A stretch of DNA of 64,000 nt from an uncultured Bacteroidota bacterium (GCA_902784865.1 CACZWL010000006.1:40112-104111), one strand, 5' to 3'. Counted from the first letter of the stretch, positions 15,740 through 57,896 are shown. Program-made: numbers and translations. The notes: a model not told the origin generated them from the letters alone.

Positions 15740-16248
15740 CAATACTCGCCGCCGAAGAAGGAGCATCCCTCTCCAGCGGCAGTCTGAGGCTGTACGCACT
15801 ACCCTACGGATGCGTCGACCTCTACAACTACGACCCCCTCAACCGCCGCTGCGCCGTGGGCATCATGGTGACTACCGAGCACCGCCGACGGGGCCATGCG
15901 CTGGCCATGCTCCAGGCCCTCGAAGAACTCGCAGCAACCAACTACCGGCTCCACACCCTCTATGCCGACATCGCCGCCACCAACACCGCCAGCATAGCCC
16001 TCTTCCGCAAAGCGGGTTACGAGGAGTGCGGACGCTTCAAAGACTGGCTAGCCATATCCCTCCGGCCTTCGGCCACCTCCCCTAGATTAGAGGAGGATCA
16101 AAGAAAGCCCGCCACACGGACCTCCCTCGGCTCTCCCCAAAGCAATGCCCCCACCGAAGAGCCCGACTTCCCTTGTACTCCCCCTTTCCAAGGGGGAGGG
16201 CCTATAACCTTTATCGACAACATCAGAATGCAAAAAATACTGCCATGA
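15736..16248 (+). CDS. Short GNAT-family N-acetyltransferase with a low-complexity C-terminal extension
   Basis: Motif A-like VTTEHRRRGHALAML and FRKAGYEECG. ATGA overlaps at both ends (recG stop, mltG start). The last 55 or so codons look non-homologous. Confidence 0.55.
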   Translation: MTILAAEEGASLSSGSLRLYALPYGCVDLYNYDPLNRRCAVGIMVTTEHRRRGHALAMLQALEELAATNYRLHTLYADIAATNTASIALFRKAGYEECGRFKDWLAISLRPSATSPRLEEDQRKPATRTSLGSPQSNAPTEEPDFPCTPPFQGGGPITFIDNIRMQKILP

Positions 16249-38573: not shown

Positions 38574-38616
38574 AATTCTGCTCGTTGCGGCCCCTCCGCA
38601 ACATCAAAAGCCCCCA

Positions 38617-38651
38617 GCGGCCCGCACCACCCTGCGGGCCGCTATCTTTTT
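38617..38651 (+). terminator. Rho-independent terminator of the acd-etf operon
   Basis: gcggcccgca-ccaccc-tgcgggccgc (10-bp stem) followed by tatcttttt. Confidence 0.7.
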
Positions 38652-38653
38652 CT

Positions 38654-38732
38654 GCAAAAAAATGTATGCCAAGACACAAAATATCCGCAAAAAAATGTAT
38701 ATTGCATCTGATTTATGTGCAAAAAAATGCAT
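38654..38732. repeat. Three 14-bp direct repeats (gcaaaaaaatgtat / ..gcat) spaced 32-33 bp
   Basis: Copies at 38654-38667, 38687-38700 and 38719-38732, just upstream of the ATPase ATG at 38741 and exactly at the G+C drop. Confidence 0.75.
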
Positions 38733-38740
38733 CAATTTTT

Positions 38741-40024
38741 ATGGAACGCTCTGTATTAAAACAACTTACATATTGGAAAAACAACCACAAAAGAAAGCCT
38801 CTTATTCTGAATGGGGCCCGTCAGGTAGGCAAAACGTGGCTTCTTCGCGAGTTTGCCCATCGCGAATATGCTAAAGAAGCATATATCTATTGCCGCAAAA
38901 ACGAAGCGGCACGCCGCATCTTCGCCCAAGACTTTGATACAGAACGGATACTCATGAACCTACGTGCCCTGTCTGGTGTCGACATCACATCTGGCGACAC
39001 GTTGATCATCCTCGACGAGGTGCAAGACATTCCAGAAGCTATCGAATCGCTGAAATACTTCTACGAAAGCCTCCCCGAATACCATATTGCCGTAGCGGGG
39101 TCGCTGCTCGGCATCTCAATGCACGCCGACATTTCGTTTCCTGTAGGCAAGGTAGATGAAATAAACCTATATCCAATGAGTTTCGAAGAATTTCTGCTAG
39201 CCAAAGGCGAGACAGAACTCGAAAAAGTCCTCTCAATGTGGGAATTTGAAGTACTAAATACACTTCACGAGAAACTCATCGACCTCCTTCGCCAGTACTT
39301 CTATGTGGGCGGGATGCCAGAAGCCGTCAAAGAATATGTCGAAACAGGAGCACTGAACGAAGTCCGCCGTATCCAGAAAAATATTCTTGGTGGCTATGCC
39401 CGCGACTTCTCGAAGCACGCCCCAAAAGAACTGGTGCCACGAATAGAACTAGTGTGGCAATCCATGCCCTCGCAGCTATTCAAAGAGAACAAGAAGTTCA
39501 TCTATGGAGCATTGCGCAAAGGGGCACGTGCCAACGACTTCGAGCTCGCCATCCGCTGGCTTGTCGATGCAGGGCTGCTGTACAAAGTTCCAAGATGCAA
39601 AAAAGTGGCATTGCCGTTGAGCATATACGAAGACCTGTCCGCCTTCAAACTTTACACTCTCGACACCGGTCTTCTGGGAGCCATGGCAAACGTAGAACCG
39701 GCACAGATACTGCTTAACGAGAACGCCTTTGTGGAATACAAGGGAGGCATGACCGAACAATATGTCCTGCAACAGATGACATGTCATGATTCCTGCCCAA
39801 TATACTACCACACAGCCGAAAATTCCCGTCTGAAGATTGACTTCCTCATTCAGCACAATGGCAAGCCACTGCCCATCGAAGTTAAAGCCGGAGGCAATGT
39901 ACGCGCCAACTCCCTCTCTCGGCTCCTGTCTGAGACACCGAACCTTGATGCCATACGATACTCCTTGCTTCCCTACAAAGAACAAGACCATCTGACAAAC
40001 ATCCCACTATACGCCGTGAGATAG
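38741..40024 (+). CDS. AAA+ ATPase with DUF4143-type C-terminal domain
   Basis: 427 aa. KPLILNGARQVGKTWLLREF (Walker A), LIILDEVQ (Walker B). C-terminal half is typical of AAA_14/DUF4143 proteins. AT-rich codon usage. Confidence 0.8.
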   Translation: MERSVLKQLTYWKNNHKRKPLILNGARQVGKTWLLREFAHREYAKEAYIYCRKNEAARRIFAQDFDTERILMNLRALSGVDITSGDTLIILDEVQDIPEAIESLKYFYESLPEYHIAVAGSLLGISMHADISFPVGKVDEINLYPMSFEEFLLAKGETELEKVLSMWEFEVLNTLHEKLIDLLRQYFYVGGMPEAVKEYVETGALNEVRRIQKNILGGYARDFSKHAPKELVPRIELVWQSMPSQLFKENKKFIYGALRKGARANDFELAIRWLVDAGLLYKVPRCKKVALPLSIYEDLSAFKLYTLDTGLLGAMANVEPAQILLNENAFVEYKGGMTEQYVLQQMTCHDSCPIYYHTAENSRLKIDFLIQHNGKPLPIEVKAGGNVRANSLSRLLSETPNLDAIRYSLLPYKEQDHLTNIPLYAVR

Positions 40025-40245
40025 CACACAGACGCATCCTCTCACTCTGCCTGGCTCCACAGGAGATATGGCCTGCGACGTAAGCACGGCAACGCGCAGC
40101 GGGCTGGAGCAAACACACTAACGCATTCCCACACTAACGCATTCTATGTGCCTTCTTTGCCACTTTTGCAAACATACTGAAAATCAAGCAACTGACAACA
40201 CCGACCTTGCAGGACACAAAATACTGATTCTCAACAAGCTACCAT

Positions 40246-40354: not shown

Positions 40355-40362
40355 TATTTTTG
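40355..40362 (+). promoter_or_regulatory. -7 promoter box (TATTTTTG) for the helicase operon
   Basis: Matches TAnnTTTG, 12 nt before the ATG at 40374 (24 nt before the ATG at 40386). Confidence 0.45.
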
Positions 40363-40373
40363 CAAAACAAAAT

Positions 40374-43300
40374 ATGTTGTATTTTATGGGCAGCAACTTT
40401 TTTACAAATGAAAACCAAAACACCCTTCTAAACAAGATAGAAGGTGTGTTTCAATACAAGAAAGTACACTTCTTTGATGCATTGGTTGGTTATTTCCGGG
40501 CTTCAGGATATTTCCGCATTAGAAAGTTTGTCCAGCAAACACCCAAAATACGATTTCTTGTTGGTATCAATGTCGACAAACTGACATATATAGCCTCTCA
40601 ACAAGGCTTGCTGTTTACTCCTGATGCCGACAAAACACTTGATGAATTCTTCTCGGACATTAAACAAAACATCCAAGAGGCTAAATACGACAAAGAGGTG
40701 GAGGACGGCATGTACCAGTTCATTGAGGACATATCTACTGGTCGTATTGAGATGAGAATACATCCTAAGCAGAATATACACGCCAAGATTTATATTTTCC
40801 GAGAGGAAACATATCATTCTCATGGGTTTGGATCTGTTATAACTGGATCAAGCAATTTGACGGAAGCTGGACTGGAGAAAAATTTTGAGTTCAATGTAGA
40901 ACTCCGAAATGACGATGATATCCTTTTTGCCACTGAAACATTTGAGAAACTTTGGGCCGAATCTGTCCCTATCTCAACAAAGCATGTGGAGGAGATAAAA
41001 AAAGAGTCGTATCTAAACACCGAACTGACACCATACGAAGTCTACCTCAAGTTCCTATTGGAATATTTTGGCAAGAGTATTGACTTTGACCCCAACTCCG
41101 TCTCTGATTTGCCAAAAGGATATAAGAAGCTGTCCTATCAGATAGATGCTGTCAATGATGGATATGCAAAAATGATGAAACACAACGGATTCTTTCTCTC
41201 CGATGTTGTCGGACTTGGAAAAACCGTTGTCACAGCGCTCATCGCAAAGAAATTTTTCTTTTCCAATGGATTCCCTACATATCGTTCACACACGTTAGTG
41301 ATTGTACCACCGGCCTTGCAAGATTCTTGGGATGAAACCTTGGACAAATTCAAGATAGACAATTACAAGATAGTCACCAATGGTAGTCTACATAAAATCA
41401 AGGATGCAGGCCTATATGATTTGGTGATTGTGGATGAGGCTCACAAGTTCCGCACAGATACTGCCTCAATGTACACCGAGTTGCAGAAAATTTGCAAAAC
41501 TCCTACACGCAGACAGAAACCCGATGGCAGCTTTTATAACAAGAAGGTCATACTGGTGACCGCTACTCCACTGAACAATAAACCTGAAGATATTGCCAAT
41601 CTCGTTTATCTGTTCCAAGACTCGAAAGACAGCACCTTGGAAGAGGGCAATCTTCAACGCTTTTTCCGCGAGCAGATAGACAAATATCGCAAACTGAAAG
41701 ATCAAAAAGATATAGCCTTGATTTCCGAAGGCATAAAGCGGATATATGAACGAATCAGGACAAAGGTTGTAGAGCCTCTCACGGTACGACGCACCAGAAC
41801 CGACCTGATGTCCAACGAAGCATACAAGAAAGACATTCTGGAGCAAGGGGTCGTCTTCCCCGATGTTCAGGCGCCAGAAAAGATATACTACCCCCTTGAT
41901 GATCAGCTCAACGAACTCTACGACAGGACAATCAAGATGCTCTGTGACCCCTATGAGGGATTGACCTATAATCGATACCAGGCCATCAAATATCTGCGTC
42001 CTGAGAAAAAGAAAAAATACAAGAAGGCTGATATGATTTCCACACAGTTGGCCAAAATCATGAAAACCCTTCTTGTCAAACGTATCGACAGCAGTTTCTA
42101 CGCTTTCAAACAATCGCTAAAACGCTATAGCGATGCAAACCGCGTGATGCGGGAGATGTTCGACAAAGGAACCATTTATATCGCCCCAAACCTGAAGGTC
42201 AATGAACTCTTGAATGATGGAAAAGAGGACGAACTCATTAAACTCATCAACGAGTCCATCTATGCCGACCCCACCATCGAAATCTGTGTTCCCGATGATT
42301 TTGAAGACGGATTTCTGGAAGGAATCAAGCACGACGAGGACATCCTCAATCAACTTGTGGATGGGTGGGACAAGATAGATTACGACCCCAAATTGGACAT
42401 GTTCTTTGAATATTTGGACGACAAACTTTTTGACAAAGCAAAGAACAACGAGGGCAAACTGGTTGTATTCTCCGAGAGTAAGGAGACTACCGACTATCTA
42501 CTGGATGCATTGATACAGCACGGCTATCCTCGCACAATTGCTGTCAAAAGCAGCAATCGCAATGAAATGATGCCCATAGTCAAGGCCAACTTCGATGCTA
42601 ACTATACCGAAGGTCAAAAGAATGACATAGACATCATCATTTCTACCGAAGTGTTAGCCGAAGGTGTTAACCTGCATCGTGCCAACGTCATTGTAAACTA
42701 TGATACTCCGTGGAACTCCACACGCCTGATGCAACGCATCGGTCGCGTGAACCGTATTGGCAGCACCGCGAAGGATATCTATATTTACAATTTCTTCCCC
42801 ACACAGAAGGTTAACGATGACATCGAACTGGAAAAGAAAGCTAAGATGAAACTCTTTGCTTTCCACTCCGCGCTTGGCGAAGACAGCCAAATCTATTCTA
42901 CCGATGAAAGCCCAGAGACATTTGGCCTTTTCGACAAGGATATAGACGAAGAACGCGATGAGAAGTTGGTTTACCTTATGCGATTGCGTAAGCTTAAGGA
43001 GGAAGATCCCGACTTGATAAAACGCATTGCCCGTTTGCCTATGCGCTCGCGTGTCGGACGCAAAAGCAAAGTGATGCGAGGGAGCACGCTGGTGTTCATT
43101 CGCAACAATCGTCGCGATGCTTTCACTTTCATTCGGGAGGACGGCTCGCACGAAGACTTGACTTTCCTCGAGGCGGCCAAAGCTTTTGAGGCCAAGGTCG
43201 ACGAAAAATCCATCCCTTTGCACGATTTACACCATCAACAGGTATCACAAGCCATCAGTCTCTTTGCCGAAAAGGATGAGGATAGCAAAGCCATAACGAT

Positions 43301-43652
43301 GAAGGTGAATGTTGCACAAGGGCCTAATGAAAAACGTGCAATAGCGTATCTTGACGCCTGTCTGCACATTGACAATCTGACGGACGAAGAATCCGGTTTG
43401 ATACGTCTGGCCAAGCGAGCCATCACCAGCGGAAAATTCCAACAATTGCAGCGCGATGTAAATAAACTGCAGTCTGCCACCAAGAAAACGCCTGTAAAAC
43501 CCTCAGTTCTGATAGAGAAAGTCATCGCAATTATCTCCTCATACCCATTACAGAATATTTCTACAGACATACCTACGCATACCCCTTCTGCAAACAAAGT
43601 ACAGAAGGGCAACTCACCGGAAATCATCATCTCCGAAAGTTTTAATTCGTAA
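40374..43652 (+). CDS. PLD-like nuclease domain fused to an SNF2-family helicase
   Basis: N-terminus HAKIYIF...GSSNLTEAG (HxK...GSxN PLD motif). SNF2 motifs VVGLGKT, VIVDEAHKFR, VTATPLNN and QRIGRVNRIGS. Alternative start at 40386. The ORF part upstream of 40374 is rejected. Confidence 0.85.
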   Translation: MLYFMGSNFFTNENQNTLLNKIEGVFQYKKVHFFDALVGYFRASGYFRIRKFVQQTPKIRFLVGINVDKLTYIASQQGLLFTPDADKTLDEFFSDIKQNIQEAKYDKEVEDGMYQFIEDISTGRIEMRIHPKQNIHAKIYIFREETYHSHGFGSVITGSSNLTEAGLEKNFEFNVELRNDDDILFATETFEKLWAESVPISTKHVEEIKKESYLNTELTPYEVYLKFLLEYFGKSIDFDPNSVSDLPKGYKKLSYQIDAVNDGYAKMMKHNGFFLSDVVGLGKTVVTALIAKKFFFSNGFPTYRSHTLVIVPPALQDSWDETLDKFKIDNYKIVTNGSLHKIKDAGLYDLVIVDEAHKFRTDTASMYTELQKICKTPTRRQKPDGSFYNKKVILVTATPLNNKPEDIANLVYLFQDSKDSTLEEGNLQRFFREQIDKYRKLKDQKDIALISEGIKRIYERIRTKVVEPLTVRRTRTDLMSNEAYKKDILEQGVVFPDVQAPEKIYYPLDDQLNELYDRTIKMLCDPYEGLTYNRYQAIKYLRPEKKKKYKKADMISTQLAKIMKTLLVKRIDSSFYAFKQSLKRYSDANRVMREMFDKGTIYIAPNLKVNELLNDGKEDELIKLINESIYADPTIEICVPDDFEDGFLEGIKHDEDILNQLVDGWDKIDYDPKLDMFFEYLDDKLFDKAKNNEGKLVVFSESKETTDYLLDALIQHGYPRTIAVKSSNRNEMMPIVKANFDANYTEGQKNDIDIIISTEVLAEGVNLHRANVIVNYDTPWNSTRLMQRIGRVNRIGSTAKDIYIYNFFPTQKVNDDIELEKKAKMKLFAFHSALGEDSQIYSTDESPETFGLFDKDIDEERDEKLVYLMRLRKLKEEDPDLIKRIARLPMRSRVGRKSKVMRGSTLVFIRNNRRDAFTFIREDGSHEDLTFLEAAKAFEAKVDEKSIPLHDLHHQQVSQAISLFAEKDEDSKAITMKVNVAQGPNEKRAIAYLDACLHIDNLTDEESGLIRLAKRAITSGKFQQLQRDVNKLQSATKKTPVKPSVLIEKVIAIISSYPLQNISTDIPTHTPSANKVQKGNSPEIIISESFNS

Positions 43653-43661: not shown

Positions 43662-45029
43662 ATGAGCGAGACCAACCGCATAGAATACAAAAGGGAATTG
43701 ACGCCCGACCTCGATATTGAAAAAGAGGTTATTGCCTTTTTGAACTACAAAGAAGGAGGCTACATTTATATTGGCATTGACGATGATGGTTCTGTTGTTG
43801 GGATTGATGATGTCGACGAGTGTATGCTGAAACTGAAAGACCGAATAAAAAACAATATCTCGCCATCAGCAATGGGCCTGTTCGACATCGCAAGCGAGTC
43901 ACACGAGGGGCGCACTGTCATAAAAATCACTGTGGCCAGTGGAATCGATAAACCGTATTTTAAAACTAAATATGGTATGACCCCACGCGGGGCATATATC
44001 CGTGTTGGCACATCGGTTGAACCCTTGCCTCAAGAACAGATTGACCGTCTGTTTGCAATGCGCACACGCAACTCCATCAGCAAGATAGTTTCAAACCGCC
44101 AGGATTTGACATTCGAGCAACTGCGTATCTACTATGACGAACGCGGCAAGCGACTGAACGACAATTTTAAGCGCAGTCTCGAATTAGTTACAAAAGAGGG
44201 AGAATACAATTATGTCGCCTATTTGTTGGCTGACGAGAACAACAATTCCATTAAAGTGGCCAAATACTCCAGCCTTGACCGATGCGACCTGATTGAAAAC
44301 AACGAGTATGGCTATTGCTCGCTTATCAAAGCCACCAAAAGCGTACTGACCAAACTGGAGATAGAGAACAAGACGGCTACGAAGATCACTCCTATGGAAC
44401 GAATCGAAACGCCTCTTTGGGACAGGGTGGCTGTGCGCGAGGCCGTAGTAAATGCTATCGTGCATAACGACTATTCCTTTGAAGTGCCACCCAAGTTCGA
44501 GATTTTCCCCGACAGGCTGGAAATTACCTCCGCGGGCAGACTTCCTGAATCCCTAAGTCGAGAGGAATTCTTTACAGGCATCTCCATCCCGCGCAACAAA
44601 GAGCTGATGCGTATCTATCGCGACCTCGATATTGTGGAATCGTTGGGCTCGGGTATACCGCGCATCCTCCGCTCCTATGGTGAAGATTGCTTCCATTTTA
44701 CTGACAACTTTATCCGAATCACCTTTCCTGCAAGTGTACGCATTGACTATGCAAGTGCATCTGCAAGTGCAACTGAAAATAAGACGGAAAAAACTACGGA
44801 AAAGTGGCCAGAAAAGTGGCCAGAAAAGTGGCCAGAAAAAGGCCAAAAAATATTAGATGCTATCTCTAATGATAAATCAACAACTATCGCAAAATTAGAA
44901 GTAGAACTAAAAATTGGACATACTACTCTAAAAAAGATATTACGTGAGATGCAGAACGAGAACATCATCCGCCATGTCGGACCTGACAAAGGTGGTCACT
45001 GGGAAATTGTAAATAATGACGCTAAATAG
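43662..45029 (+). CDS. AlbA_2 (Schlafen-like) / HATPase_c_4-like / winged-HTH protein (often annotated RecG-like putative transcriptional regulator)
   Basis: 455 aa. N-terminus NRIEYKRELTPDLDIEKEVIAFLNYKEGGYIYIGIDDDG. Middle REAVVNAIVHNDY...ESLGSGIPRI. C-terminus TTIAKLEVELKIGHTTLKKILREMQNENII. Confidence 0.8.
   Translation: MSETNRIEYKRELTPDLDIEKEVIAFLNYKEGGYIYIGIDDDGSVVGIDDVDECMLKLKDRIKNNISPSAMGLFDIASESHEGRTVIKITVASGIDKPYFKTKYGMTPRGAYIRVGTSVEPLPQEQIDRLFAMRTRNSISKIVSNRQDLTFEQLRIYYDERGKRLNDNFKRSLELVTKEGEYNYVAYLLADENNNSIKVAKYSSLDRCDLIENNEYGYCSLIKATKSVLTKLEIENKTATKITPMERIETPLWDRVAVREAVVNAIVHNDYSFEVPPKFEIFPDRLEITSAGRLPESLSREEFFTGISIPRNKELMRIYRDLDIVESLGSGIPRILRSYGEDCFHFTDNFIRITFPASVRIDYASASASATENKTEKTTEKWPEKWPEKWPEKGQKILDAISNDKSTTIAKLEVELKIGHTTLKKILREMQNENIIRHVGPDKGGHWEIVNNDAK
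44799..44834. repeat. Perfect 12-bp x3 tandem repeat (gaaaagtggcca) inside the AlbA_2 gene
   Basis: Encodes (EKWP)x3. A degenerate fourth unit, gaaaaaggcca, follows. Confidence 0.85.
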
Positions 45030-48000
45030 CAAGATAAGAATAAAAATAGCACACAATATGAACCGCCAAGACTTAAAACAGATACTATCATCAAAGTTCG
45101 ACTTCGCCAAGTGGAAAGAACTGCTCCTTGATATGTTCAAGAGTGTTGATTTCTTTACCAAGACTGTAGCCGTTGATGCAGACTTGATAAAGTCTGGTGG
45201 ACAGCTGGGCACAATCCATCTTGGCGATAGGCGTGATATTGCACTTTTCGTTTTTGAAGTGGCAGACCACGTAAAAATAGAAAGAAACCGTATAGGTCTT
45301 CGTAAAATCGGAGCAAAGTATGTCGACCAAAACATCGTTCATGGCGCATTGGTTTTTTACTATTCATCTTCGCAAGCCAACTATCGTTTGACTTATGTGT
45401 CAAAGAAAACGGTTCTGGATGCCGCAGGTAATTTAATCACGCAAGAAACAGCACCGAAACGTTTCACTTTCTTGTTAGGCGAAAACGAACCTTGCAGCAC
45501 CGCTGCACAACGATTGATACGCTTTTTTAATTCCAAGGATGTTCCGGTAATGGCCGATTTAGAAGAAGCTTTTTCGGTCGAGCGCTTGAATAGCGAGTTT
45601 TTTGATGGCTACAAAAGCCAATATAAGAAATTCAAAGATACGCTTCCAAATACGAGACGTCATAGAGACTATGTAAAAAAACTCTTAGGACGCCTTGTGT
45701 TTCTCCAGTTCTTGCAAAAGAGAGGCTGGATGGGCGTTCCTGTCAACGTGGAAGGCTGGGAAGGTGGAGACAAACAATATTTATACAATTTAATTCATCG
45801 TTACGAAGGCAACGATAGATTGTTAAGTGATGTACTTGAATATTTGTTCTTCAATACGTTGAATGAAAAGCGCAATGGCGATATCGCTGATAAACGCCTG
45901 GGAGACAATATCAAAATACCTTATTTGAATGGAGGTCTGTTTGAGAAGGATGATATAGACAGGATGGATATAGATTTCCCTTTCGAATATTTTGCCAATT
46001 TGATAGATTTCTTCTCAATGTATAACTTTACAATTGATGAGAATGACCCTGACGATGCAGAAGTGGGTGTTGATCCAGAAATGTTAGGACATATCTTCGA
46101 AAACCTGCTTGAAGATAACAACGAGAAAGGTGCCTACTATACCCCCAAGGAAATTGTCCAATACATGAGTCAAGAGAGTGTGTCGCAATATTTGAAGAAA
46201 CATCTGGAAGGGGAATTCCAGGAAGCGGTTGACGATTTGATTATGCGGAATGTCGTTGCTGAAGTCATCCAAAACAAGAATGTGGCAAAGAAAATTGACG
46301 AATTATTGGATAACGTTAAAGTATGCGATCCAGCCATTGGCTCGGGAGCATTTCCGATAGGGGTGATGAATGTTTTGTATCGAGCCCATCTGCATCTATA
46401 CGGCTTTTCAAATCCCACTAAACCTTTTTCCCCGGCTTCTGTCAAAAAAGATATTATCCAAAACAACATCTATGGTGTGGATATTGAACAAGGAGCTGTA
46501 GATATTGCACGATTGCGCTTCTGGCTTGCCCTTATCGTTGATGAGGAAGAACCTGTGCCACTCCCCAATTTGGATTATAAAATAGTGTGTGGCGACTCTT
46601 TGTTGAACCGCTACGATCTTGACGTTCCTATTAAATCGGTATTTGTTGAATACAATCAGAGCCATACTGGCAAGGAAAGCAAAATGTCCTTGCAGAAATA
46701 CAAACAATTGGTGGCCGATTTCACTAATACGGATGACCACAATGCAAAAAATATATTCCGGGGTAAAATTGAGGAGATTAAAAACTCATTCCGATTCTAC
46801 TTGTCCAAAAAAGAGGCTAATAGTTTGATGAAATTACGTAGTGAGGTCGCCTATTACAATTATCCCCGTTTTTTTGAAGAAACAGAGGAAGAGGCTGCAC
46901 ATCGTAAGAACCGTCAGGCAGACTTGGCGCAAATGGAGGAGTATGCAAAGAATATTGAGACCAATAGACTCTATAGCAACTCCTTTGAATGGCGCTTTGA
47001 ATACCCTGCATTGTTAGATGAGGATGGAAACTTCACTGGTTTTGACATCATCATTGGCAACCCGCCTTATTTGAGAATTCAGGGCCTTAGAGAAAGGGAC
47101 TCTGACTATGCTGATGAGTTAGTTAAAAAATACAAATCTGCGACAGGCTCCTTCGATTTGTACGAGATGTTTGTTGAACAAGGATTAAAGTTGTCGGGTG
47201 ATAATGGTATCGTGAATTATATCATGCCCACCAAATGGACAAACTCTGCCTTCGGCAAAGGCCTTCGTAAACTATTGGTGGAGCAAACTGCCATTTCGAA
47301 GATTATCAGCTTTGGAGACTATCAGATATTTGATGCATCTACCTACACGGGGCTCCAGTGGTTTGTCAAAGGAAGTACCCGGCTGGAATATTATGAACTG
47401 GATAGAAGCATCACATCGAAAGACGACCTGCAGAAATTCCTATTTTCACTCACTCAAGAGAAATCAACTACAATCGAGATGTCTTCATTGTCCGAGAAAC
47501 AATGGGTACTCACATCTGGCGAAACTTCTCGAATCTTGAAAGAAATGAACAGGCAGCCCAGACACATCAAAGACGTGTTTGACAAGATATTTCAAGGTTT
47601 GGCAACCAGTAAGGATGATGTATATTTCCTTTATAATTGTGAAGAAGAAGGAAAGTACGTTGTTGGAGATTCCAAACAATTAGGCAGGCGAATCAAAGTG
47701 GAGAAAGGAATAGTAAAACCTTTGTTAAAGGGTGGAAATGTACATAGATATGATACTATTTCGACAAATATGTACGTAATATTTCCATACATAATCAAAG
47801 AAGGTAATGCAGTATTGATTCCAGAAGATGATTTAAGTAACAAATTCCCAATGGCGTATTCATACCTAAAAGAAAATGAATCACCTCTCAGAAATAGAGA
47901 ACATGGCAGATTTAACATAGATGGTTCTTGGTTTCAATTTGGAAGAAAACAAGGCATTTTATCAGCTGAAACAGAAAAACTGGTCGCCCCAGATATTTCT

Positions 48001-48603
48001 ATGGGTGGGAATTTCGCCTATGACATTGATGGGAAATTTTATCAGACAACTACAATCTACGGATATTTAAAAAAAGCAAATGTCAAAGAAAGTTACGAAT
48101 TCTGGATGGCGTTGCTTAATTCCCGACTTTGCTGGTGGTTTTTGACAAATACCGGAACCACATTGGCCAATGGTTTCTTCAGATTCAAACCTGATTACAT
48201 TAATCCTTTCCCTATTCCAATTGAAACGCAAACAGAGAAATGTTCATTCATTATTGAGTCATTGGCGACCATGATTCAGTATTTGTATAACAAAAGCAAT
48301 AAAGAATTATATACCCATACCTTGAATGAAAGACTTGCAATCCATCTCGAAGAAATAATAGACATGGTTGTTTACGAGTTATACTTTGAACAACACATGA
48401 AGGAACAAAAGATAGATGTAATTGAGGATTTGAAGGGTTATAAATGGAATAATAACAAAATAATCGCCGAACAAATCAAAGATTTCTATCAATGGTTCCA
48501 GCAGTCCGATAATATGGTTCGTCAAAAGCTAATGCTGCTTGATACTCGCAGTTCAAACCTTTTGTATGAAATCCATAAATCCTGGAGATATGAGCAAAAT
48601 TAA
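45016..48603 (+). CDS. Eco57I-like N6-adenine DNA methyltransferase with TaqI_C-like specificity region (about 1200 aa, no nuclease motif recognised)
   Basis: Motif I VCDPAIGSGAFPIG and motif IV IIIGNPPY. The C-terminal third has FQGLATSKDDVYFL and FRFKPDYINPFPIP. The ATG at 45016 overlaps the upstream gene by 14 nt; the alternative ATG is at 45058. Confidence 0.85.
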   Translation: MTLNSKIRIKIAHNMNRQDLKQILSSKFDFAKWKELLLDMFKSVDFFTKTVAVDADLIKSGGQLGTIHLGDRRDIALFVFEVADHVKIERNRIGLRKIGAKYVDQNIVHGALVFYYSSSQANYRLTYVSKKTVLDAAGNLITQETAPKRFTFLLGENEPCSTAAQRLIRFFNSKDVPVMADLEEAFSVERLNSEFFDGYKSQYKKFKDTLPNTRRHRDYVKKLLGRLVFLQFLQKRGWMGVPVNVEGWEGGDKQYLYNLIHRYEGNDRLLSDVLEYLFFNTLNEKRNGDIADKRLGDNIKIPYLNGGLFEKDDIDRMDIDFPFEYFANLIDFFSMYNFTIDENDPDDAEVGVDPEMLGHIFENLLEDNNEKGAYYTPKEIVQYMSQESVSQYLKKHLEGEFQEAVDDLIMRNVVAEVIQNKNVAKKIDELLDNVKVCDPAIGSGAFPIGVMNVLYRAHLHLYGFSNPTKPFSPASVKKDIIQNNIYGVDIEQGAVDIARLRFWLALIVDEEEPVPLPNLDYKIVCGDSLLNRYDLDVPIKSVFVEYNQSHTGKESKMSLQKYKQLVADFTNTDDHNAKNIFRGKIEEIKNSFRFYLSKKEANSLMKLRSEVAYYNYPRFFEETEEEAAHRKNRQADLAQMEEYAKNIETNRLYSNSFEWRFEYPALLDEDGNFTGFDIIIGNPPYLRIQGLRERDSDYADELVKKYKSATGSFDLYEMFVEQGLKLSGDNGIVNYIMPTKWTNSAFGKGLRKLLVEQTAISKIISFGDYQIFDASTYTGLQWFVKGSTRLEYYELDRSITSKDDLQKFLFSLTQEKSTTIEMSSLSEKQWVLTSGETSRILKEMNRQPRHIKDVFDKIFQGLATSKDDVYFLYNCEEEGKYVVGDSKQLGRRIKVEKGIVKPLLKGGNVHRYDTISTNMYVIFPYIIKEGNAVLIPEDDLSNKFPMAYSYLKENESPLRNREHGRFNIDGSWFQFGRKQGILSAETEKLVAPDISMGGNFAYDIDGKFYQTTTIYGYLKKANVKESYEFWMALLNSRLCWWFLTNTGTTLANGFFRFKPDYINPFPIPIETQTEKCSFIIESLATMIQYLYNKSNKELYTHTLNERLAIHLEEIIDMVVYELYFEQHMKEQKIDVIEDLKGYKWNNNKIIAEQIKDFYQWFQQSDNMVRQKLMLLDTRSSNLLYEIHKSWRYEQN

Positions 48604-50530
48604 CTCAATAACCCTTTCCAACTTCAAGTTCTTTGGTAAAGAAGAAACAATCGAATTAGGTGGTAAGCACCTCCTACTCTACGGTGAGAACGGTAGCGGA
48701 AAAAGTTCTATCTACTGGGCATTATACACATTATTGGAAGCTGCAAGAAAGACTACTCTGGAGACAGGAAAATACTTTGTCCCATTATCCTATAGTGCAG
48801 ATTCCTTACTTAATATACATGCCACCAAAGAATCTTCTCCTGTTGAACACTACAACTCTTATATTCGTATTCTTGATGATGGTAATCATCAGTATGAGTT
48901 ATCTTTATGGAGGGAGAATGTTTGTGGCAATTCTAATATAATGGAGTCTAGACTTTCTTCGGAGTTTATCAACTATCAATCACTGTATAAATTTCAAGAT
49001 TTCAAGAATAGTGAAGATCCTGATCTCTATAACATTTTTATAAACACAATCCTTTCTAACGAGAGTTTTGGAACATACAGATTAAAAGGCAAAATACTAG
49101 ACAATGCGTATGAAATGTGGGTTGAGTTTCAAGATGGCCCGGGCACAACTGTTAACAGCAAAGGAGAAACAATCCAAGTATATAAAAACAGTCAACAATA
49201 TATTGATTTCGTTGATATGGTTAGCGGGTTCAACCGCGGAATGAATGGGTTGATAAATGACATCAATAGCAACGCACAAAAGTATGTTAATAGTCTCGGG
49301 TACAATATGTCCTTTCATCTTGAATACAAAGAGCCTACATTCAAGAAAAAAGATAAAAAATATGAGTGGACACCATTTGGCATCCGTCTTACAATAACAA
49401 AATACGATGGAGTAGACGTAACAGTTGAACGCCCCCACAAGTTTCTAAATGAAGCGAGAATGTCTGCCATAGCAATTGCTATTAGGCTATCTATTATTAA
49501 GCGAAGAATTGGAGCTTCTGCTCCCGATGCACTAAAGTTATTGTTGTTGGATGATATCATGATTAGCCTCGATATGAGCAATCGAGACAAATTGCTAAAA
49601 TTGTTTTTATGTGAGTTAACAAAAGATTTCCAAGTTTTATTATTCACACATGACAAACGCCTATATGAATATATTGGACATCGGATAAACATAGAGAAGC
49701 AAAAGAAAAACTGGATTACATACGAGATGTATTCAGGTATTGATGCCATCAGTAAACATGAAGTTCCTATTATCATTAAATCAGAATGTGAATTTATTGA
49801 TAAAGCAAAGAAATTTTTCGATGTATCAAAAGACTATTCATCTTGTGCAATTAACCTCAGAAAAGCTTTGGAGATGGAGACAGGAAATCGTCTTCCAATT
49901 GAATTGAAAAAAAGAGCAATTGGAGGTTATGTTGATTTGCAAACACTTTGGGACAAGCTGAAGGAATATTATTCTAATAATAAATATCTTGATTCCAAAA
50001 AGATTAAACCAATTGATGACCTTTTTAAAGAATCGAAATTGTTTATTTTAAACCCTTCTGCACACTATCAAAGCCTATCGAATCCTATATATAGAAGTGA
50101 ATTAGAAAAGGCGTTTTTACTGTATTCGGAAGTCGCAGCTTTACCAATAGTGCATAGAGAATTAAAGATATCTAAAGATTCATATATCCTATGTTCTATT
50201 TCTGCAAAAAAATACACTTGTGGCTTTTATCTGGACGACGATTTGGTCGTAGTCGAAGGAGAACACATAATAAGCAGAATGCCAAAATGCTATAAAATTT
50301 TTTGGGAATATAACGGAATAGAATACTATAATTTTGTCACAGGTGTCAAAGATTTAACTAATCCATTAATAAAATCGACTCCCAAATTGGATTCTTTTAT
50401 TAGCAGGCTACCACTTGGTATTGACGAACAAACATTTTTGTCCAACTGTCGTATAAATGGCATACCAATAAATGACTATTTGGGTGGAGTTAATATTTCA
50501 TCATTGATTGTTCAATCCGCAAAACCATAA
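48590..50530 (+). CDS. ABC/SMC-like (RecF/AAA_13-15-23 type) ATPase with an uncharacterised C-terminal domain of about 270 aa
   Basis: 646 aa. ITLSNFKFFG...LLLYGENGSGKSS (Walker A), LLLLDDIMISLD (Walker B/D-loop), LLFTHD (H-loop). Start overlaps the methylase gene by 14 nt. Confidence 0.75.
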   Translation: MSKINSITLSNFKFFGKEETIELGGKHLLLYGENGSGKSSIYWALYTLLEAARKTTLETGKYFVPLSYSADSLLNIHATKESSPVEHYNSYIRILDDGNHQYELSLWRENVCGNSNIMESRLSSEFINYQSLYKFQDFKNSEDPDLYNIFINTILSNESFGTYRLKGKILDNAYEMWVEFQDGPGTTVNSKGETIQVYKNSQQYIDFVDMVSGFNRGMNGLINDINSNAQKYVNSLGYNMSFHLEYKEPTFKKKDKKYEWTPFGIRLTITKYDGVDVTVERPHKFLNEARMSAIAIAIRLSIIKRRIGASAPDALKLLLLDDIMISLDMSNRDKLLKLFLCELTKDFQVLLFTHDKRLYEYIGHRINIEKQKKNWITYEMYSGIDAISKHEVPIIIKSECEFIDKAKKFFDVSKDYSSCAINLRKALEMETGNRLPIELKKRAIGGYVDLQTLWDKLKEYYSNNKYLDSKKIKPIDDLFKESKLFILNPSAHYQSLSNPIYRSELEKAFLLYSEVAALPIVHRELKISKDSYILCSISAKKYTCGFYLDDDLVVVEGEHIISRMPKCYKIFWEYNGIEYYNFVTGVKDLTNPLIKSTPKLDSFISRLPLGIDEQTFLSNCRINGIPINDYLGGVNISSLIVQSAKP

Positions 50531-50543
50531 GTAGATCATTGAT

Positions 50544-51968
50544 ATGGAACAAGCACCTATACTCATCACCACCCAATACGAGGCTGAAAGATTTGAGACA
50601 TTCCTAGCCTTGTCCGACAATCACAGAATCCTATTCTCTGGGAAATATGGGAGTGGCAAGACCTTTTTCTTGCATGAGTTCTTTACTACACGGAAAAAGG
50701 ATGAATATGAGGTATTCCATCTTTTCCCGACTAACTATACAATAGCGAAAAACGAGGATGTCGTCAAACTACTCCAGTTTGATATCTTATATGAGCTACT
50801 GGTGAAAGGTTATCTGGCTCCGTCAAAGAAACTGTTTACTACACAAGAAACCATGGCTGGCTTCGTGCAAAACAATTTCCCTAATATCATTAAGGATGTT
50901 GTATCCCATTGCGGCAAAATCGGAAAGAAACTGTCAGATGTATTTGATACCTACACCCAATGGGCTGCAAAGTACGAGGCCTTCGATAAAGGTATTAACC
51001 AAAATGCAGAAGATAAGGCAAGAGAAGCATTCTATAACCTGATAAATGAGGTTGAATATAATGCCACTACGGAGTTAATAGAGATGATCAACTCCACGAT
51101 TGACAAGCAAAAGGTTCTTATAGTAGATGACCTCGACAGAATTGACCCAGAGCACATCTTCAGATTACTCAACCTCTTCTCAGCACAGACATCCAATTAC
51201 TTCCCCGCCCATTGGCCTATTAACCAGGATGAAAATCGTTATGGGTTCGACAAAATCATATTTGTCTGCGACATAGACAATATCCGCAATATCTTCCGCG
51301 CCAAATATGGTGACGGCGTTGACTTCGCTGGATATATCGACAAATTCTACAGCATAGCGCCCTATTTCTTCAACAATAATAATATGGTTGCCCAAGAGGC
51401 ACACCTTTTTGTTGCATCCATCAACTCTGAATGGCCTGTACAGAGCAGAGAACAGTTCTCCTCGCTTGTCAGGATGCTGTTGTTCCATAATGTCATCACT
51501 TTGAGAAAACTGAAAGAAAAGGAATTTGCACATTGGGAATATCCAACCAGGAAACACCCCTCAATTATCCAAGGAAACAATATATGGTCTGTCGGGATAC
51601 TTGATTTGATGCTTTTTCTATTTGGAACCAAAGAAGACGCAACTGCGGCGTTAAAGAAAAACACTGAAGAAATATCATTAGACTTGTTGGAAAGGTCTGG
51701 CTATCGCCTTACCGATATGTTGATTCCTTTCCTTCTTCCCAATGCCACCTTGACAGTCGGAGAAGATTTTGTTTACGAGAACCAAGACCTTGACATAAAA
51801 TTATACTATAAATGTGAACCTTACAATAGAGAAATCTATGCTGAATTGAAAACAGCTTCCAGTATCAACGGAAGTGAAAGGAAAAAGATACCGTTCTTCC
51901 GACTAATGTCAATCGCTTTGGAAAATTATTGCAAACTGATAGAAGTCCCCAATGTCATAAGATATTAA
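50544..51968 (+). CDS. KAP-family P-loop NTPase
   Basis: 474 aa. ILFSGKYGSGKTFFL (Walker A) and KVLIVDDLDRIDPEHIFRLLN (the KAP-type DDLDR Walker B). Confidence 0.8.
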   Translation: MEQAPILITTQYEAERFETFLALSDNHRILFSGKYGSGKTFFLHEFFTTRKKDEYEVFHLFPTNYTIAKNEDVVKLLQFDILYELLVKGYLAPSKKLFTTQETMAGFVQNNFPNIIKDVVSHCGKIGKKLSDVFDTYTQWAAKYEAFDKGINQNAEDKAREAFYNLINEVEYNATTELIEMINSTIDKQKVLIVDDLDRIDPEHIFRLLNLFSAQTSNYFPAHWPINQDENRYGFDKIIFVCDIDNIRNIFRAKYGDGVDFAGYIDKFYSIAPYFFNNNNMVAQEAHLFVASINSEWPVQSREQFSSLVRMLLFHNVITLRKLKEKEFAHWEYPTRKHPSIIQGNNIWSVGILDLMLFLFGTKEDATAALKKNTEEISLDLLERSGYRLTDMLIPFLLPNATLTVGEDFVYENQDLDIKLYYKCEPYNREIYAELKTASSINGSERKKIPFFRLMSIALENYCKLIEVPNVIRY

Positions 51969-51981
51969 GTGATTCATTCGC

Positions 51982-52053
51982 ATGGAATTCAAACGAGAAC
52001 TGACCAACGACCTTGACATTGAAAAAGAGGTGATCGCATTATTCAAAATCTAA
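51982..52053 (+). pseudogene. 23-codon remnant of a second AlbA_2-family gene
   Basis: MEFKRELTNDLDIEKEVIALFKI* aligns with residues 8-30 of the 43662 gene (EYKRELTPDLDIEKEVIAFLNYK). The DNA is similar but not identical. Confidence 0.65.
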
Positions 52054-52117
52054 GAGTCAGAACACCATAATGTTTGAATGTGCTAATGTGTAAATGTGTT
52101 AGTGAATATCGGAATGC

Positions 52118-53014
52118 ATGAATATGTTAACGACAATGAGCAATAAGAAATCCATACGTTTTTTCAACGACCACGAGGTGCGAGCCATTTGGAACGAGGA
52201 GAACAGCAAGTGGTGGTTCTCCGCCACCGATATGGTTCGCGCCATCAACGATGAAGAGGACTACAAGAAATGCCGCAACTACTGGAAATACTTGAAAGGC
52301 AAGATGGCCAAAGAAGGCATCCAACTGGTTAGTGTCACTAACCACTTCAAATTTATGGCTCCCGACGGCAAACAACGCGCGTCCGACGCTCTTGATGCCG
52401 AAGCTGTACGGACGTTGGCACAACACTACCCCAATAACCGGGCAAACGCTTTCCTCAGCTGGTTCGTCTACAGCGACAACACCATCGACGGACAGAGCAA
52501 GAAGAAAGCCTATACGCTAGCCGAAAGTGGTATCCTCGACAGCATGAAGCCCGGCACCGTCAAATGCCTCCAGCAAATCCACGCCTACCTTTTCGGAGGC
52601 CTCTACGACTTCGCGGGCAAGATACGCACGAAGACCATCGCCAAGGGCAACACACTGTTCTGTTTGGCAGAGCATCTGCAAAGCTACCTGAAAACCGTGG
52701 AGGTAATGCCAGAGACGACATTCGATGAGATAGTAGACAAATACGTGGAGATGAACGCAGCACACCCCTTCATGGAAGGCAACGGCCGTTCGAGACGCAT
52801 CTGGCTCGACTTAATCTTCAAGAAGCAACTGAAGGTGTGTGTCGATTGGAGCAAGATAGACAAACGGGATTACCTCGACGCCATGATAGCCAGCCAGACC
52901 GACAGCAGTCGTATCCGCGAACTCCTCAAAGGCGCATTGACAGACCGCATCGACGACCGCGAGTTGTTCATGAAAGGCATCGACTACTCCTACTATTATG
53001 AACAGGAAGACTGA
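52118..53014 (+). CDS. Fic-family protein with Bro-N-like N-terminal domain
   Basis: 298 aa. HPFMEGNGRSRR matches the Fic motif HPFx(D/E)GNGRxxR. N-terminus IRFFNDHEVRAIWNEENSKWWFSATDMVRAIN resembles Bro-N. Confidence 0.85.
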   Translation: MNMLTTMSNKKSIRFFNDHEVRAIWNEENSKWWFSATDMVRAINDEEDYKKCRNYWKYLKGKMAKEGIQLVSVTNHFKFMAPDGKQRASDALDAEAVRTLAQHYPNNRANAFLSWFVYSDNTIDGQSKKKAYTLAESGILDSMKPGTVKCLQQIHAYLFGGLYDFAGKIRTKTIAKGNTLFCLAEHLQSYLKTVEVMPETTFDEIVDKYVEMNAAHPFMEGNGRSRRIWLDLIFKKQLKVCVDWSKIDKRDYLDAMIASQTDSSRIRELLKGALTDRIDDRELFMKGIDYSYYYEQED

Positions 53015-56357: not shown

Positions 56358-56450
56358 AGCCCGCGAAGCGGGCGGCACTTTAATTAGCCGTGGGCGCAAG
56401 CCCACGGTATGCGGGGCACCACCTCGTGGAGCCCGCGAAGCGGGCGGCAC
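56358..56450. repeat. GC-rich structured module: 21-bp perfect direct repeat x2 flanking a GCAA-loop hairpin
   Basis: agcccgcgaagcgggcggcac at 56358-56378 and 56430-56450, each holding a gcccgc-GAA-gcgggc mini-hairpin. ccgtgggc-gcaa-gcccacgg lies at 56388-56407. Confidence 0.7.
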
Positions 56451-56559: not shown

Positions 56560-56763
56560 ATGAGTAACACAAAATGTATAAATACTATTGAAGGTTATCA
56601 CTTCACTGATATTGATCCAGGGACTACTGCAGGCAGTATGCAAAGTGCCAGATGTAAAAGGCAGAAACTATACGTCATAGAGGCTGCAAGAGCACTTGAA
56701 CATAGAAAGAAACTTATAGATAATGGTAATAAAAATCACATTTTAAAAAGAGATTGGTTTTAA
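56560..56763 (+). CDS. Small hydrophilic hypothetical protein (67 aa)
   Basis: ATG-started ORF in the AT-rich islet. Its stop is 2 nt before the next gene's ATG. No TM segment and no recognisable motif. Confidence 0.4.
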   Translation: MSNTKCINTIEGYHFTDIDPGTTAGSMQSARCKRQKLYVIEAARALEHRKKLIDNGNKNHILKRDWF

Positions 56764-56765
56764 TT

Positions 56766-57896
56766 ATGAAACTTGAAAGCTATCAACGAATAGTAGAGTT
56801 AAATCTAGATGGAACTAAACGTAAATATGTCAAAACTCCAGCTTTTGGCTATCCTGGTTTTTTTGAAGTATTTCCTTATATTGAAGAAAAGCGAGAAGAA
56901 GCTGAAAATGGTAGAAGTCTAGACGAACCGCCTATATTTATAAATACAAGACATCCTAATAATCACGATATTAGCAAATATGGTCCTGTTATTGAAAAAG
57001 AAACTGTTAGTGATTTAGAGCAAAAACTTTATGAAAGTTCTAGATTCCAAGACGGAACTAGAATGCAAGTTATATTTAATCCTAATGGTGTGAACGATAC
57101 TATTATTGGACAATACCCTTTGCCACCAAGACATATAAATCCTGATGTGTTTGTTGACGGAGATAGACATGCCACTTATGACTTACGAGGTAATCCTATG
57201 TGGCATCAAGGGGTTCCTGCACAAAAAGATGATAGAAACAAGAAAAAGAAAGGTGGCAGTACCGATTGGCCACCTAGACGCGTTATTCCATTTATGCCGC
57301 CTCCTATTGATGCTTCTTTGCAAAGTGTTGTTGGAATAAGAGACATTCCTAATGATGAGAAGAAAGCGTATGTACTGAATGATTGGAGAAAAGGAATACA
57401 TAATATGGAGAACGCAACCAATAAAGGACTTGTTGTTACTCCACAAAATGATTCTACATGGTATCCATACGATTCTTATGAAGGCGGAGCAAAGACTGTT
57501 TATGACGGTCTAAAACTAAATCCAGGAACTGATGCTGAAAGGATAATCAAAGAACAAGGTTATTTGACTAATTTTCAAGCAAAAGGGCTATTGTGGGATG
57601 CTCTGTCCGACCATTATGACAAAGCAAAGAAAACATATGAAGCCACAGTCGGAGATGGTTCATGGGACGAGTTAAGTATTGAAGAACAAAAAGTATTGGC
57701 GGATTATTCCTATACTGGAGTACTTCATGAATTTAAAAATTTTATGAGAGGTATAAAAAACAAAGATAGCGAAATAATAAGAAGAGAGTATAAACGTTAT
57801 ATTAATGGAAAACCGCTTAAATCACGTAACGATGAAACAAAAAAGCAATTGGAGCACATTATTGACTCTCATGGTTATAGGTCTCCTAATAAATAA
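56766..57896 (+). CDS. Signal-less protein with a C-terminal GH24 (phage/T4-type) lysozyme-like domain
   Basis: 376 aa. YEGGAKTVYDG (E-x7-Y-D spacing resembles the lysozyme catalytic region), LTNFQAKGLLWDAL, LSIEEQKVLADYSYTG and GKPLKSRNDETKKQL. The N-terminal 230 aa or so are unassigned. Confidence 0.65.
   Translation: MKLESYQRIVELNLDGTKRKYVKTPAFGYPGFFEVFPYIEEKREEAENGRSLDEPPIFINTRHPNNHDISKYGPVIEKETVSDLEQKLYESSRFQDGTRMQVIFNPNGVNDTIIGQYPLPPRHINPDVFVDGDRHATYDLRGNPMWHQGVPAQKDDRNKKKKGGSTDWPPRRVIPFMPPPIDASLQSVVGIRDIPNDEKKAYVLNDWRKGIHNMENATNKGLVVTPQNDSTWYPYDSYEGGAKTVYDGLKLNPGTDAERIIKEQGYLTNFQAKGLLWDALSDHYDKAKKTYEATVGDGSWDELSIEEQKVLADYSYTGVLHEFKNFMRGIKNKDSEIIRREYKRYINGKPLKSRNDETKKQLEHIIDSHGYRSPNK

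Follow-up and report, generated by a model that had tools for sequence, protein, structure and literature searches.

Within a 64,000-nt stretch of DNA from an uncultured Bacteroidota bacterium (GCA_902784865.1 CACZWL010000006.1:40112-104111), hereafter the window, we have analysed a gene for an ABC-type ATPase that starts inside the 3' end of a DNA methyltransferase (methylase) gene and is closely followed by a gene for a KAP-family nucleoside triphosphatase (NTPase). A first-pass annotation had proposed that the two NTPases form a pair linked to restriction-modification (R-M), possibly as an abortive-infection back-up. The genes lie in an island of ~14.5 kb, at ~38.5-53 kb of the window, where the GC content is 35-45% between flanks of ~60%, and which holds seven genes, all on the + strand. 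A flanking acyl-CoA dehydrogenase shares 96% identity with goat and buffalo rumen metagenome-assembled genomes; the host genome is that of an uncultured rumen Bacteroidales and the region is a defence island. The features on which the argument turns are the following.

40386-43652, + strand: PLD(HKD)-SNF2 helicase-nuclease, the restriction component (Pfam PLDc_2, SNF2-rel_dom and Helicase_C; PADLOC 'HKD+Snf2' 2.6e-48 and DrmD-like matches)
45016-48603, + strand: Eco57I/TaqI_C-type N6-adenine DNA methyltransferase of 1195 amino acids, the modification and specificity component (Pfam Eco57I 1.8e-40, TaqI_C 2e-11; PADLOC type IIG REase_MTase 2.2e-88)
48463-48600, + strand: C-terminal tail of the methylase, WFQQSDNMVRQKLMLLDTRSSNLLYEIH, a candidate site for docking of the ATPase (association of this tail type with the ATPase)
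48590-50530, + strand: Rad50/SMC-type ABC ATPase of 646 amino acids (Pfam SMC_N 4.6e-13)
48590-49714, + strand: head of the ATPase, residues 1-375 (Pfam SMC_N, PDB profile search and 71-sequence alignment)
49775-50149, + strand: family-specific helical domain of the ATPase, residues ~396-520, putative catalytic or effector site (AlphaFold2 model, pLDDT 83; invariant R424 at 49859, E428 at 49871, N488 at 50051 and H492 at 50063)
50150-50527, + strand: variable, beta-rich C-terminal tail of the ATPase, residues ~521-646 (in the model, six strands and a small alpha/beta end)
50544-51968, + strand: soluble KAP-family P-loop NTPase of 474 amino acids, independent single-gene cargo (Pfam KAP_NTPase 2.3e-10)

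The ATPase open reading frame (ORF) runs from an ATG at 48590 and, as first described, overlaps the methylase gene, whose stop codon occupies 48601-48603, by 14 nt. All homologues start with MSKI..., which identifies 48590 as the real start and not a longer, TTG-initiated ORF from 48539. The motifs listed in the first-pass annotation are all present: Walker A GENGSGKSS (residues 32-40), LLLLDD with D321 and D322, and THD with H354 in the ATPase, and GSGKT and DDLDR in the KAP protein. The head has in addition Q130, an atypical signature LNEA (N287 and E288) and the D-loop SLD. The Pfam SMC_N match spans residues 4-374 and is accompanied by AAA_23, AAA_21 and AAA_29, and in a search of the PDB with the family profile the nearest structures are Rad50 heads (3qku, 5.3e-10; profile positions 5-338 against chain positions 1-345). 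Because the ~375-residue head aligns end to end with Rad50 head constructs from which the coiled coil was deleted, there is no room in it for a long coiled coil; judged by sequence, it is an ABC NTPase of the Rad50/SMC type that lacks a coiled coil. Clustered at 90%, the full-length relatives of the protein number more than 4,500; the best 120 are 44-54% identical to it, the named sources are Bacteroidales, and the family amounts to ~400 clusters at 50% identity, mostly from Bacteroidota. Current databases label these proteins 'AAA family ATPase' or, mistakenly, as transporters ('EcfA2', 'lipoprotein export'). In Phocaeicola plebeius DSM 17135 (L044, 16827-20131) the ATPase gene appears to be split into an N-terminal ORF of 340 and a C-terminal ORF of 270 amino acids by an opposite-strand ORF of 435 amino acids, which is probably a gene-disrupting insertion element.

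The ~270 residues behind the head belong to no assigned family, in line with the first description: residues ~376-646 have no match in Pfam, NCBIfam, PADLOC or PHROGs. In the AlphaFold2 model of this C-terminal region, ~six helices are bundled together and six strands form a beta domain; a beta-hairpin and a small tail complete it. Foldseek, a tool that is weak on small helical bundles, returned no match below E = 0.09 for the whole C-terminal model in the PDB and BFVD, and a profile of the C-terminus matched no PDB sequence at E <= 10. A search of 1.84 billion proteins with a profile of the helical part retrieved 401 representatives, almost all 580-690 amino acids long and with the domain at residues ~360-530. 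An N-terminal Walker A is present in 98 of the 102 long ones, so that the helical domain, which essentially always stands behind such a motif, is private to the ATPase family. The beta tail is less constant, being absent in some members (460-530 amino acids) and different between the subfamilies of 624 and 649 amino acids. In an alignment of 71 sequences with 22-44% identity to the window ATPase, the only invariant columns are E33, G37, N287, E288, D321, D322 and R332 in the head, and R424, E428, N488 and H492 in the helical domain.

In what company is the ATPase found? A scan centred on it, with one genome per species, yielded 23 loci, two of which are cut by contig ends, leaving 21 that are informative. 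At 18 loci the ATPase gene comes directly after a full methylase gene that itself stands behind a PLD-SNF2 helicase gene. At the other three (L030, L033 and L034) it follows a gene for a protein of 342-358 amino acids that is homologous only to the last ~330 residues of the methylase, with no helicase nearby and with other neighbours, for example glycosyltransferases. A methylase gene, or one resembling the methylase C-terminus, is therefore directly upstream of the ATPase in 21 of 21 informative loci. In the metagenome loci L001-L010 the PLD-SNF2 helicase and the Eco57I methylase likewise always precede the ATPase, which overlaps the methylase stop by 4-14 nt. The gene behind the ATPase varies: in Parabacteroides distasonis it is a Lamassu-like set with RhuM, elsewhere HNH_5 and an acetyltransferase.

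A second scan of species genomes, centred on the helicase, found at least 576 related loci; the 80 examined represent 49 distinct systems. The methylase follows the helicase wherever the downstream sequence allows, with a single exception (L067). Of the 49 distinct systems, 21 (~43%) have the ATPase behind the methylase and ~57% lack it. As the methylase is nearly constant with the helicase and the ATPase is not, helicase and methylase form the core and the ATPase is a common, methylase-dependent accessory. The core is a two-gene, ATP-dependent R-M-like system consisting of the PLD(HKD)-SNF2 helicase-nuclease and the Eco57I/TaqI_C N6-adenine methylase. When the ATPase is absent, McrB/McrC-like pairs (8 loci), a different ABC ATPase accompanied by a 200-amino-acid protein, or an AbiEii-like gene may occupy the slot behind the methylase, or nothing recognisable is found there. 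Proteins of ~840-900 and ~411-428 amino acids stand behind the methylase, with the ATPase absent, in L084, L086, L087, L088, L097, L100, L102 and L103; the pair in L087 resembles McrBC, the McrB-like member having AAA+ GTPase motifs, so that a type IV system would be added on top of the R-M-like core.

The end of the methylase varies with the presence of the ATPase. The window methylase ends in the tail WFQQSDNMVRQKLMLLDTRSSNLLYEIH, whereas methylases without an ATPase mostly end in ...IDNLVYKLYxLTxEE.... The window type of tail is found in 37 of 40 methylases with an ATPase behind them against 6 of 28 without (Fisher test, 1.4e-9). Counting just the helicase-centred sample, which has no bias towards or against the ATPase, gives 18 of 21 against 6 of 28 (p = 9.5e-6). 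Although only 26-28% identical to the window methylase, the stand-alone partners of L030, L033 and L034 have conserved the window type of tail (LLDTRSPELLYKI). From this association and from the minimal pairs of ATPase and a protein resembling a target recognition domain (TRD), we infer that the methylase TRD and tail are the docking partner of the ATPase.

The KAP gene starts at 50544, 13 nt behind the ATPase stop as first described. Its product exceeds the Pfam KAP_NTPase cut-off of 20 with 40.6 bits and carries GSGKT at residue 36 and DDLDR at residue 195; D195, D196, L197, D198 and R199 are invariant in an alignment of 14 KAP sequences. The highest mean Kyte-Doolittle value over 19 residues is 1.35, so that no transmembrane segment is predicted, unlike the classical membrane-inserted KAP form. 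An AlphaFold2 model (pLDDT 78) has a soluble alpha/beta fold with a weak likeness to ORC/Cdc6, HslU and the RADAR RdrA rings. This KAP is a soluble, ring-ATPase-like single-gene module found in many contexts, often just behind R-M genes. In species genomes it stands beside an ATPase of the family described above at 2 of 80 loci with KAP relatives and is carried by ~2 of 44 ATPase loci. The order ATPase then KAP is confined to the window's own lineage (L009/L010, L026, L041/L121 and L122, with KAP at 79-93% identity). Elsewhere, a 58%-identical relative sits inside a type I R-M locus (HsdM, HsdS, HsdS, KAP, AlbA_2, a gene of no known family, HsdR) and a 52%-identical one follows Mrr, in both cases with no such ATPase. 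The same-strand upstream neighbours of KAP relatives (n = 45) include MmeI-type IIG enzymes (3-4), Eco57I methylases (4) and HsdS (3), the rest being unrelated, and no recurrent partner appears among the downstream neighbours. In L030, a KAP-like NTPase with 30% identity (14632-15963) is encoded three genes downstream from the ATPase and is the sole looser hint of an ATPase-KAP association outside the window's lineage.

Comparison of close relatives locates the seam between the two genes. Against L009, nucleotide identity of 90% extends from the helicase to 48822, ~230 nt into the ATPase gene, and returns at 50559, at the KAP start; against L041, identity stops at 46527, in the middle of the methylase gene, and returns at 50556. 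Both breaks end at the junction of ATPase and KAP, which shows that the KAP gene stayed in place while the ATPase was exchanged, either by itself or along with the catalytic/TRD half of the methylase. The adjacency of the two genes, on which the first-pass annotation had leaned, thus resolves into an ATPase that tracks the methylase and a KAP that does not track the ATPase. We are confident that the ATPase is a methylase-dependent accessory and that KAP is independent of it.

Nor is QatA, cited earlier as an example of a KAP NTPase in defence, among the PADLOC matches of the KAP protein, which are confined to PDC-S20, AbiLi, Cas11b and PifA (0.0089), all weak; as the island also has no QatBCD genes, this is not a Qat system. 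KAP NTPases fused to C-terminal regions of no known function act as stand-alone antiphage proteins, giving up to ~6 log of protection that depends on Walker B (PMC13552941). The window protein resembles EF_KAP and the gut-metagenome KAPs of that study in combining a KAP domain with a C-terminal region of ~250 amino acids of no known function, in being a single gene and in its defence context; it differs from EF_KAP, modelled with two transmembrane helices, in that none are predicted. By analogy with the antiphage KAP proteins validated in 2025-26, it most likely acts alone. Directly behind the KAP stop, ~77 nt (51979-52055) are left from the 5' end of what was a second AlbA_2 gene and read MEFKRELTNDLDIEKEVIALFKI followed by a stop codon; since an intact AlbA_2 gene stands behind the KAP relatives in L011-L017, the remnant is probably a scar of deletion or recombination. 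A true two-gene cassette of KAP and AlbA_2, at which L011-L017 and the remnant hint, was considered and rejected, AlbA_2 being only 1-2 of 39 downstream neighbours.

What might the ATPase do behind a methylase? To our knowledge, the R-M-coupled nucleases that deliver a 'second strike' are almost only PrrC and RloC, on type I systems, whose cleavage of tRNA is set off by a phage anti-restriction factor. The first-pass annotation had invoked these two, and a family assignment to them is not supported. The window ATPase has no Pfam AAA_13 match; in the wider family, 40 of 71 members have one, the best reaching 34.8 bits against a cut-off of 36, and in all eight matches whose coordinates were checked it covers only profile positions 2-58 of 713, that is, the P-loop. 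PADLOC gives no PrrC or RloC match for the ATPase, and the comparison of C-terminal domain profiles is not significant. Membership of PrrC/RloC is therefore not supported.

A likeness in design is nevertheless apparent. The nuclease triad experimentally implicated in PrrC is R320-x3-E324...H356 (PMC1484252). PrrC genes were recovered from metagenomes through the LARP peptide KYGDSNKSFSY (PMC1950546); they are named 'anticodon nuclease' and carry PF13166, and since all the retrieved homologues are at least 76% identical, the PrrC profile built from them is shallow. Their C-terminal domains read LLRNLYEKTASFLG...RIINFTSHSTLSN, where the window ATPase reads INLRKALEMETGNRL...LFILNPSAHYQSLSN; LLRNLYEK and INFTSHSTLSN of PrrC stand against NLRKALEM and ILNPSAHYQSLSN, and the motifs have the same composition and order in both, R-x3-E and then N-x3-H-x2-LS. 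Both proteins also have a DD Walker B and, at equal spacing behind it, an SLD D-loop. A full-length profile-profile alignment gives a colinear local match from Walker B to the His motif that places H492 on H356 (P = 0.0012). Like PrrC and RloC, the ATPase fuses an ABC-type NTPase head to a private C-terminal domain, is found essentially only beside R-M genes (at every informative locus) and is optional for the R-M system. An ABC-type NTPase with a private C-terminal domain, invariant R, E, N and H residues and R-M linkage makes a PrrC-like guard or effector a reasonable reading for the ATPase alone. The proposal of an R-M guard or effector thus remains tenable for the ATPase, given its position behind the methylase, its optional presence and its four invariant residues, and falls for the ATPase-KAP pair. 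The ATPase may work like PrrC without being filed as a PrrC member.

Based on these observations, we propose the following mechanism. The ATPase, whose translation is coupled to that of the methylase through the overlapping gene ends, would dock on the TRD and C-terminal tail of the methylase. Nucleotide-dependent switching of the ABC head would then control the private helical domain, as PrrC is controlled on EcoprrI, and R424, E428, N488 and H492 would most likely constitute a metal-independent nuclease site, probably that of an RNase. The second strike would fall when the R-M complex is engaged or neutralised; this trigger and the abortive outcome are presumed. Drawn as it is from motifs and from analogy, the nuclease/guard mechanism taken by itself is held tentatively, somewhat below an even chance. 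Combined with the gene order, it is the best overall explanation that we can offer, and one that we hold to be slightly more probable than its opposite. In its most specific form, the ATPase would represent a widespread and so far undescribed family of R-M guards in Bacteroidota that docks on the tail/TRD of Eco57I-type methylases, its C-terminal domain would be a metal-independent RNase of a new type, perhaps a tRNase, convergent with PrrC or very distantly related to it, and it would fire when a phage neutralises the HKD-SNF2/methylase system; this full version is a possibility that we put forward with some doubt.

Several points weigh against a guard nuclease. With the C-terminal domains alone, hhalign does not find a significant match to PrrC (P = 0.07; score 15.8 against 11.8 +/- 2.0, maximum 17.8, for shuffled columns), deletion of the presumed insertion brings no gain in this comparison, and R424 and E428 are paired with a PrrC helix other than that of R320 and E324. 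The Walker B sequence is DD and not DE, the signature is LNEA and the His of the H-loop is mostly Tyr across the 71-sequence alignment, so that ATP turnover may be slow or regulatory. The statistics on tail and ATPase ignore phylogeny, and common descent could partly explain the association. The Pfam matches of the C-terminal domain to HEPN (0.11) and DUF4145 (0.13), which come from single members, are too weak to use and were set aside. The clade may also already figure in the classification of conflict-system ABC ATPases by Krishnan et al. 2020. In MADS, lastly, mad3 follows the N6-methylase mad2 and is needed for defence itself, not as a back-up, and not for methylation (bioRxiv 10.1101/2023.03.30.534895).

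This last point leads to the strongest alternative, in which the ATPase is an integral restriction subunit that clamps, loads on or senses DNA and licenses the HKD-SNF2 nuclease on unmethylated DNA, like mad3 or the CxC ABC ATPase of PbeABCD, with no separate suicide effector. The best PADLOC match of the ATPase is indeed mad3 (3.9e-16), LmuB and PbeC also matching through the head, and the head is closest to the DNA-binding heads of Rad50/SMC proteins. The tight translational coupling, with overlaps of 4-14 nt, and a methylase tail that co-varies with the ATPase would suit a subunit, and the combination of HKD-SF2 helicase, methylase and ABC ATPase is a theme already described (PMC10853773). 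A subunit of the restriction machinery sits uneasily, however, with the ~57% of helicase-methylase pairs that do without the ATPase, many with unrelated genes in its slot, and with L030, L033 and L034, where the ATPase has a TRD-like protein as partner and no helicase-nuclease to license. The ATPase also lacks a coiled coil, a Zn hook and a DndE partner, and four invariant polar residues in a private domain resemble an active site more than a DNA clamp. We regard an integral subunit as credible, on balance rather unlikely.

A non-catalytic role for the C-terminal domain, as a sensor or adaptor that binds, for example, phage anti-restriction proteins or modified DNA and triggers the HKD nuclease or the variable downstream effectors in the manner of PARIS AriA, appears improbable. 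It would account for the replacement of the ATPase body between near-identical islands (43% identity against 95-96% for the neighbours), as expected under diversifying phage pressure, for the variability of the beta-rich tail and for the effectors often encoded downstream (HNH_5, Lamassu, KAP), and OLD-type ABC sensors coupled to varied nucleases are known around BREX-like systems (PMC12839542). Strict invariance of R, E, N and H in so deeply diverged a family would be unusual for a pure binding surface, however, the genes downstream vary too much to serve as obligate effectors, and the head is Rad50/SMC-like, not OLD-like. The reading of the first-pass annotation, a joint two-gene abortive-infection back-up of the R-M system made of ATPase and KAP, is very improbable and close to refuted by synteny: the shared strand, the 13-nt gap, the order recurring in a handful of loci and the distant KAP-like gene of L030 speak for it, while the adjacent cases all belong to one lineage with helicases at least 85% identical to that of the window, KAP relatives of 52-58% identity and other KAP loci nearly always lack the ATPase, and within the lineage the ATPase has been swapped (43-48% identity) beside a conserved KAP, with breakpoints at the junction.

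The other genes of the island are cargo around the core. These features are the following.

38585-40024, + strand: AAA_14/DUF4143 ATPase at the left end of the island, neighbouring cargo (Pfam DUF4143 3.3e-32, AAA_14 9.3e-28; PADLOC candidate PDC-S01 1.5e-172, aligned from residue 53)
43662-45029, + strand: Schlafen/AlbA_2 and HATPase_c_4 gene, variable cargo (Pfam SLFN_AlbA_2 6.3e-22, HATPase_c_4 1.5e-14)
51979-52055, + strand: 5' fragment left over from a second AlbA_2 gene (77 nt, 75% identity to 43677-43753)
52118-53014, + strand: Bro-N and Fic gene at the right end of the island, neighbouring cargo (Pfam Fic 3.8e-11, Bro-N; PADLOC candidate PDC-S04 6.7e-157; NCBIfam NmFic, adenylyltransferase type, 1.1e-74)

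The embedded Schlafen/AlbA_2 gene carries the repeat WPEKWPEKWPEK and overlaps the methylase start by 14 nt. Only some of the related loci have an AlbA_2 gene in the gap between helicase and methylase; elsewhere the gap is empty or holds other genes, such as a gene resembling Bro-N (L020), one for an AAA_14/DUF4143 protein (L081) and unassigned genes. The position is a second variable slot inside the system, and the AlbA_2 gene is not part of the core. Two gene starts can be refined. The helicase ORF opens at 40146, while its homologues align only from residue 81 (MGSNFFTNE...), 80 codons further in; this alignment and a Bacteroidetes-type -7 box, TATTTTTG (TAnnTTTG), at 40355-40362 place the true start probably at 40386. 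The alignment of PDC-S01 from residue 53 likewise puts the true start of the DUF4143 gene probably near 38741 (MERSVLKQL...). A strong terminator-like hairpin (38616-38643; 11 bp, 9 of them GC, then a T run) falls within the 5' end of the TTG-initiated DUF4143 ORF (38585-38741). Boxes of the form TAnnTTTG occur on the + strand at 40355, 43650 and 50329, a motif barely above chance, and a scan for sigma-70 promoters and terminators was uninformative for this Bacteroidales genome. Outside the island, a GC-rich palindromic 21-mer, AGCCCGCGAAGCGGGCGGCAC, is present in two exact copies 72 nt apart (56358-56378 and 56430-56450); the pair adjoins a second low-GC patch (56-58.3 kb, 42% GC) with an ORF of 380 amino acids (56754-57896) of no assigned family.

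What are the implications of such a guard? The ATPase family may be the second-strike counterpart on the very common PLD-SNF2 plus Eco57I-methylase systems of Bacteroidota, the dominant phylum of the gut and rumen. The slot behind the ATPase is a hot spot for defence genes, taken by KAP, Lamassu or HNH genes, and by McrBC where the ATPase is absent. The KAP gene illustrates the limits of guilt by adjacency, a close neighbour on the same strand having turned out to be independent cargo.

How does the system compare with those already known? From PrrC the ATPase differs in length (646 against 396 amino acids), in a spacer between the motifs that is ~30 residues longer and in its extra beta-rich tail, and from RloC in a Rad50/SMC-like head that lacks the coiled coil and Zn hook of RloC. 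Its host system is an HKD-SNF2 helicase with an Eco57I methylase in Bacteroidota, where that of PrrC is type I (Ic) R-M, and its gene follows the methylase gene, where PrrC is embedded within the type I R-M locus.

The core recalls the Type-2 BR systems, in which an N-terminal HKD nuclease is fused to a Swi2/Snf2 helicase and accompanied by an N6-methylase (PMC8565338, PMC12839542), and the Hma/DUF499-centred BREX-related systems, which are platforms with other defence genes embedded in them (bioRxiv 10.1101/2024.01.29.577857). The logic of helicase, methylase and ATPase is shared with them, as is the union of PLDc_2, SNF2-rel_dom and Helicase_C in one protein, which matches HmaA at 3.8e-27. 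The ATPase differs in being of the ABC/SMC type (SMC_N, AAA_23, AAA_21) and optional, in place of the core DUF499 protein (HmaC), and the original Hma methylase is a 5-methylcytosine enzyme. Among the seven island proteins there is no Pfam match to DUF499 or DUF3780, and with the DUF499 core ATPase absent we reject membership of the Hma/DUF499-centred BR systems. Class 1 DISARM was rejected as well: the island has only DrmD-like and DrmMI-like matches, at 144.9 bits against an NCBIfam cut-off of 610, and neither DrmA nor DrmB. MADS and PbeABCD/CxC-ABC resemble the system in having an ABC-type ATPase gene that directly follows, or accompanies, the genes for a methylase and an HKD/SF2 nuclease-helicase, and a PbeA match is also present. 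They differ from it in that the matches are confined to the ABC head and nothing in either corresponds to the C-terminal domain of the ATPase. The mandatory mad6, mad7 and mad8 are unmatched among the seven island genes, the DndE partner and CxC coiled-coil hook of Pbe are absent, and canonical Lamassu has a defining component that is missing here, so that none of the three was retained. The ATPase family thus combines an architecture met in several defence systems with a C-terminal domain of its own, and it differs from PrrC/RloC, Hma/BR, Pbe and MADS each in one defining component.

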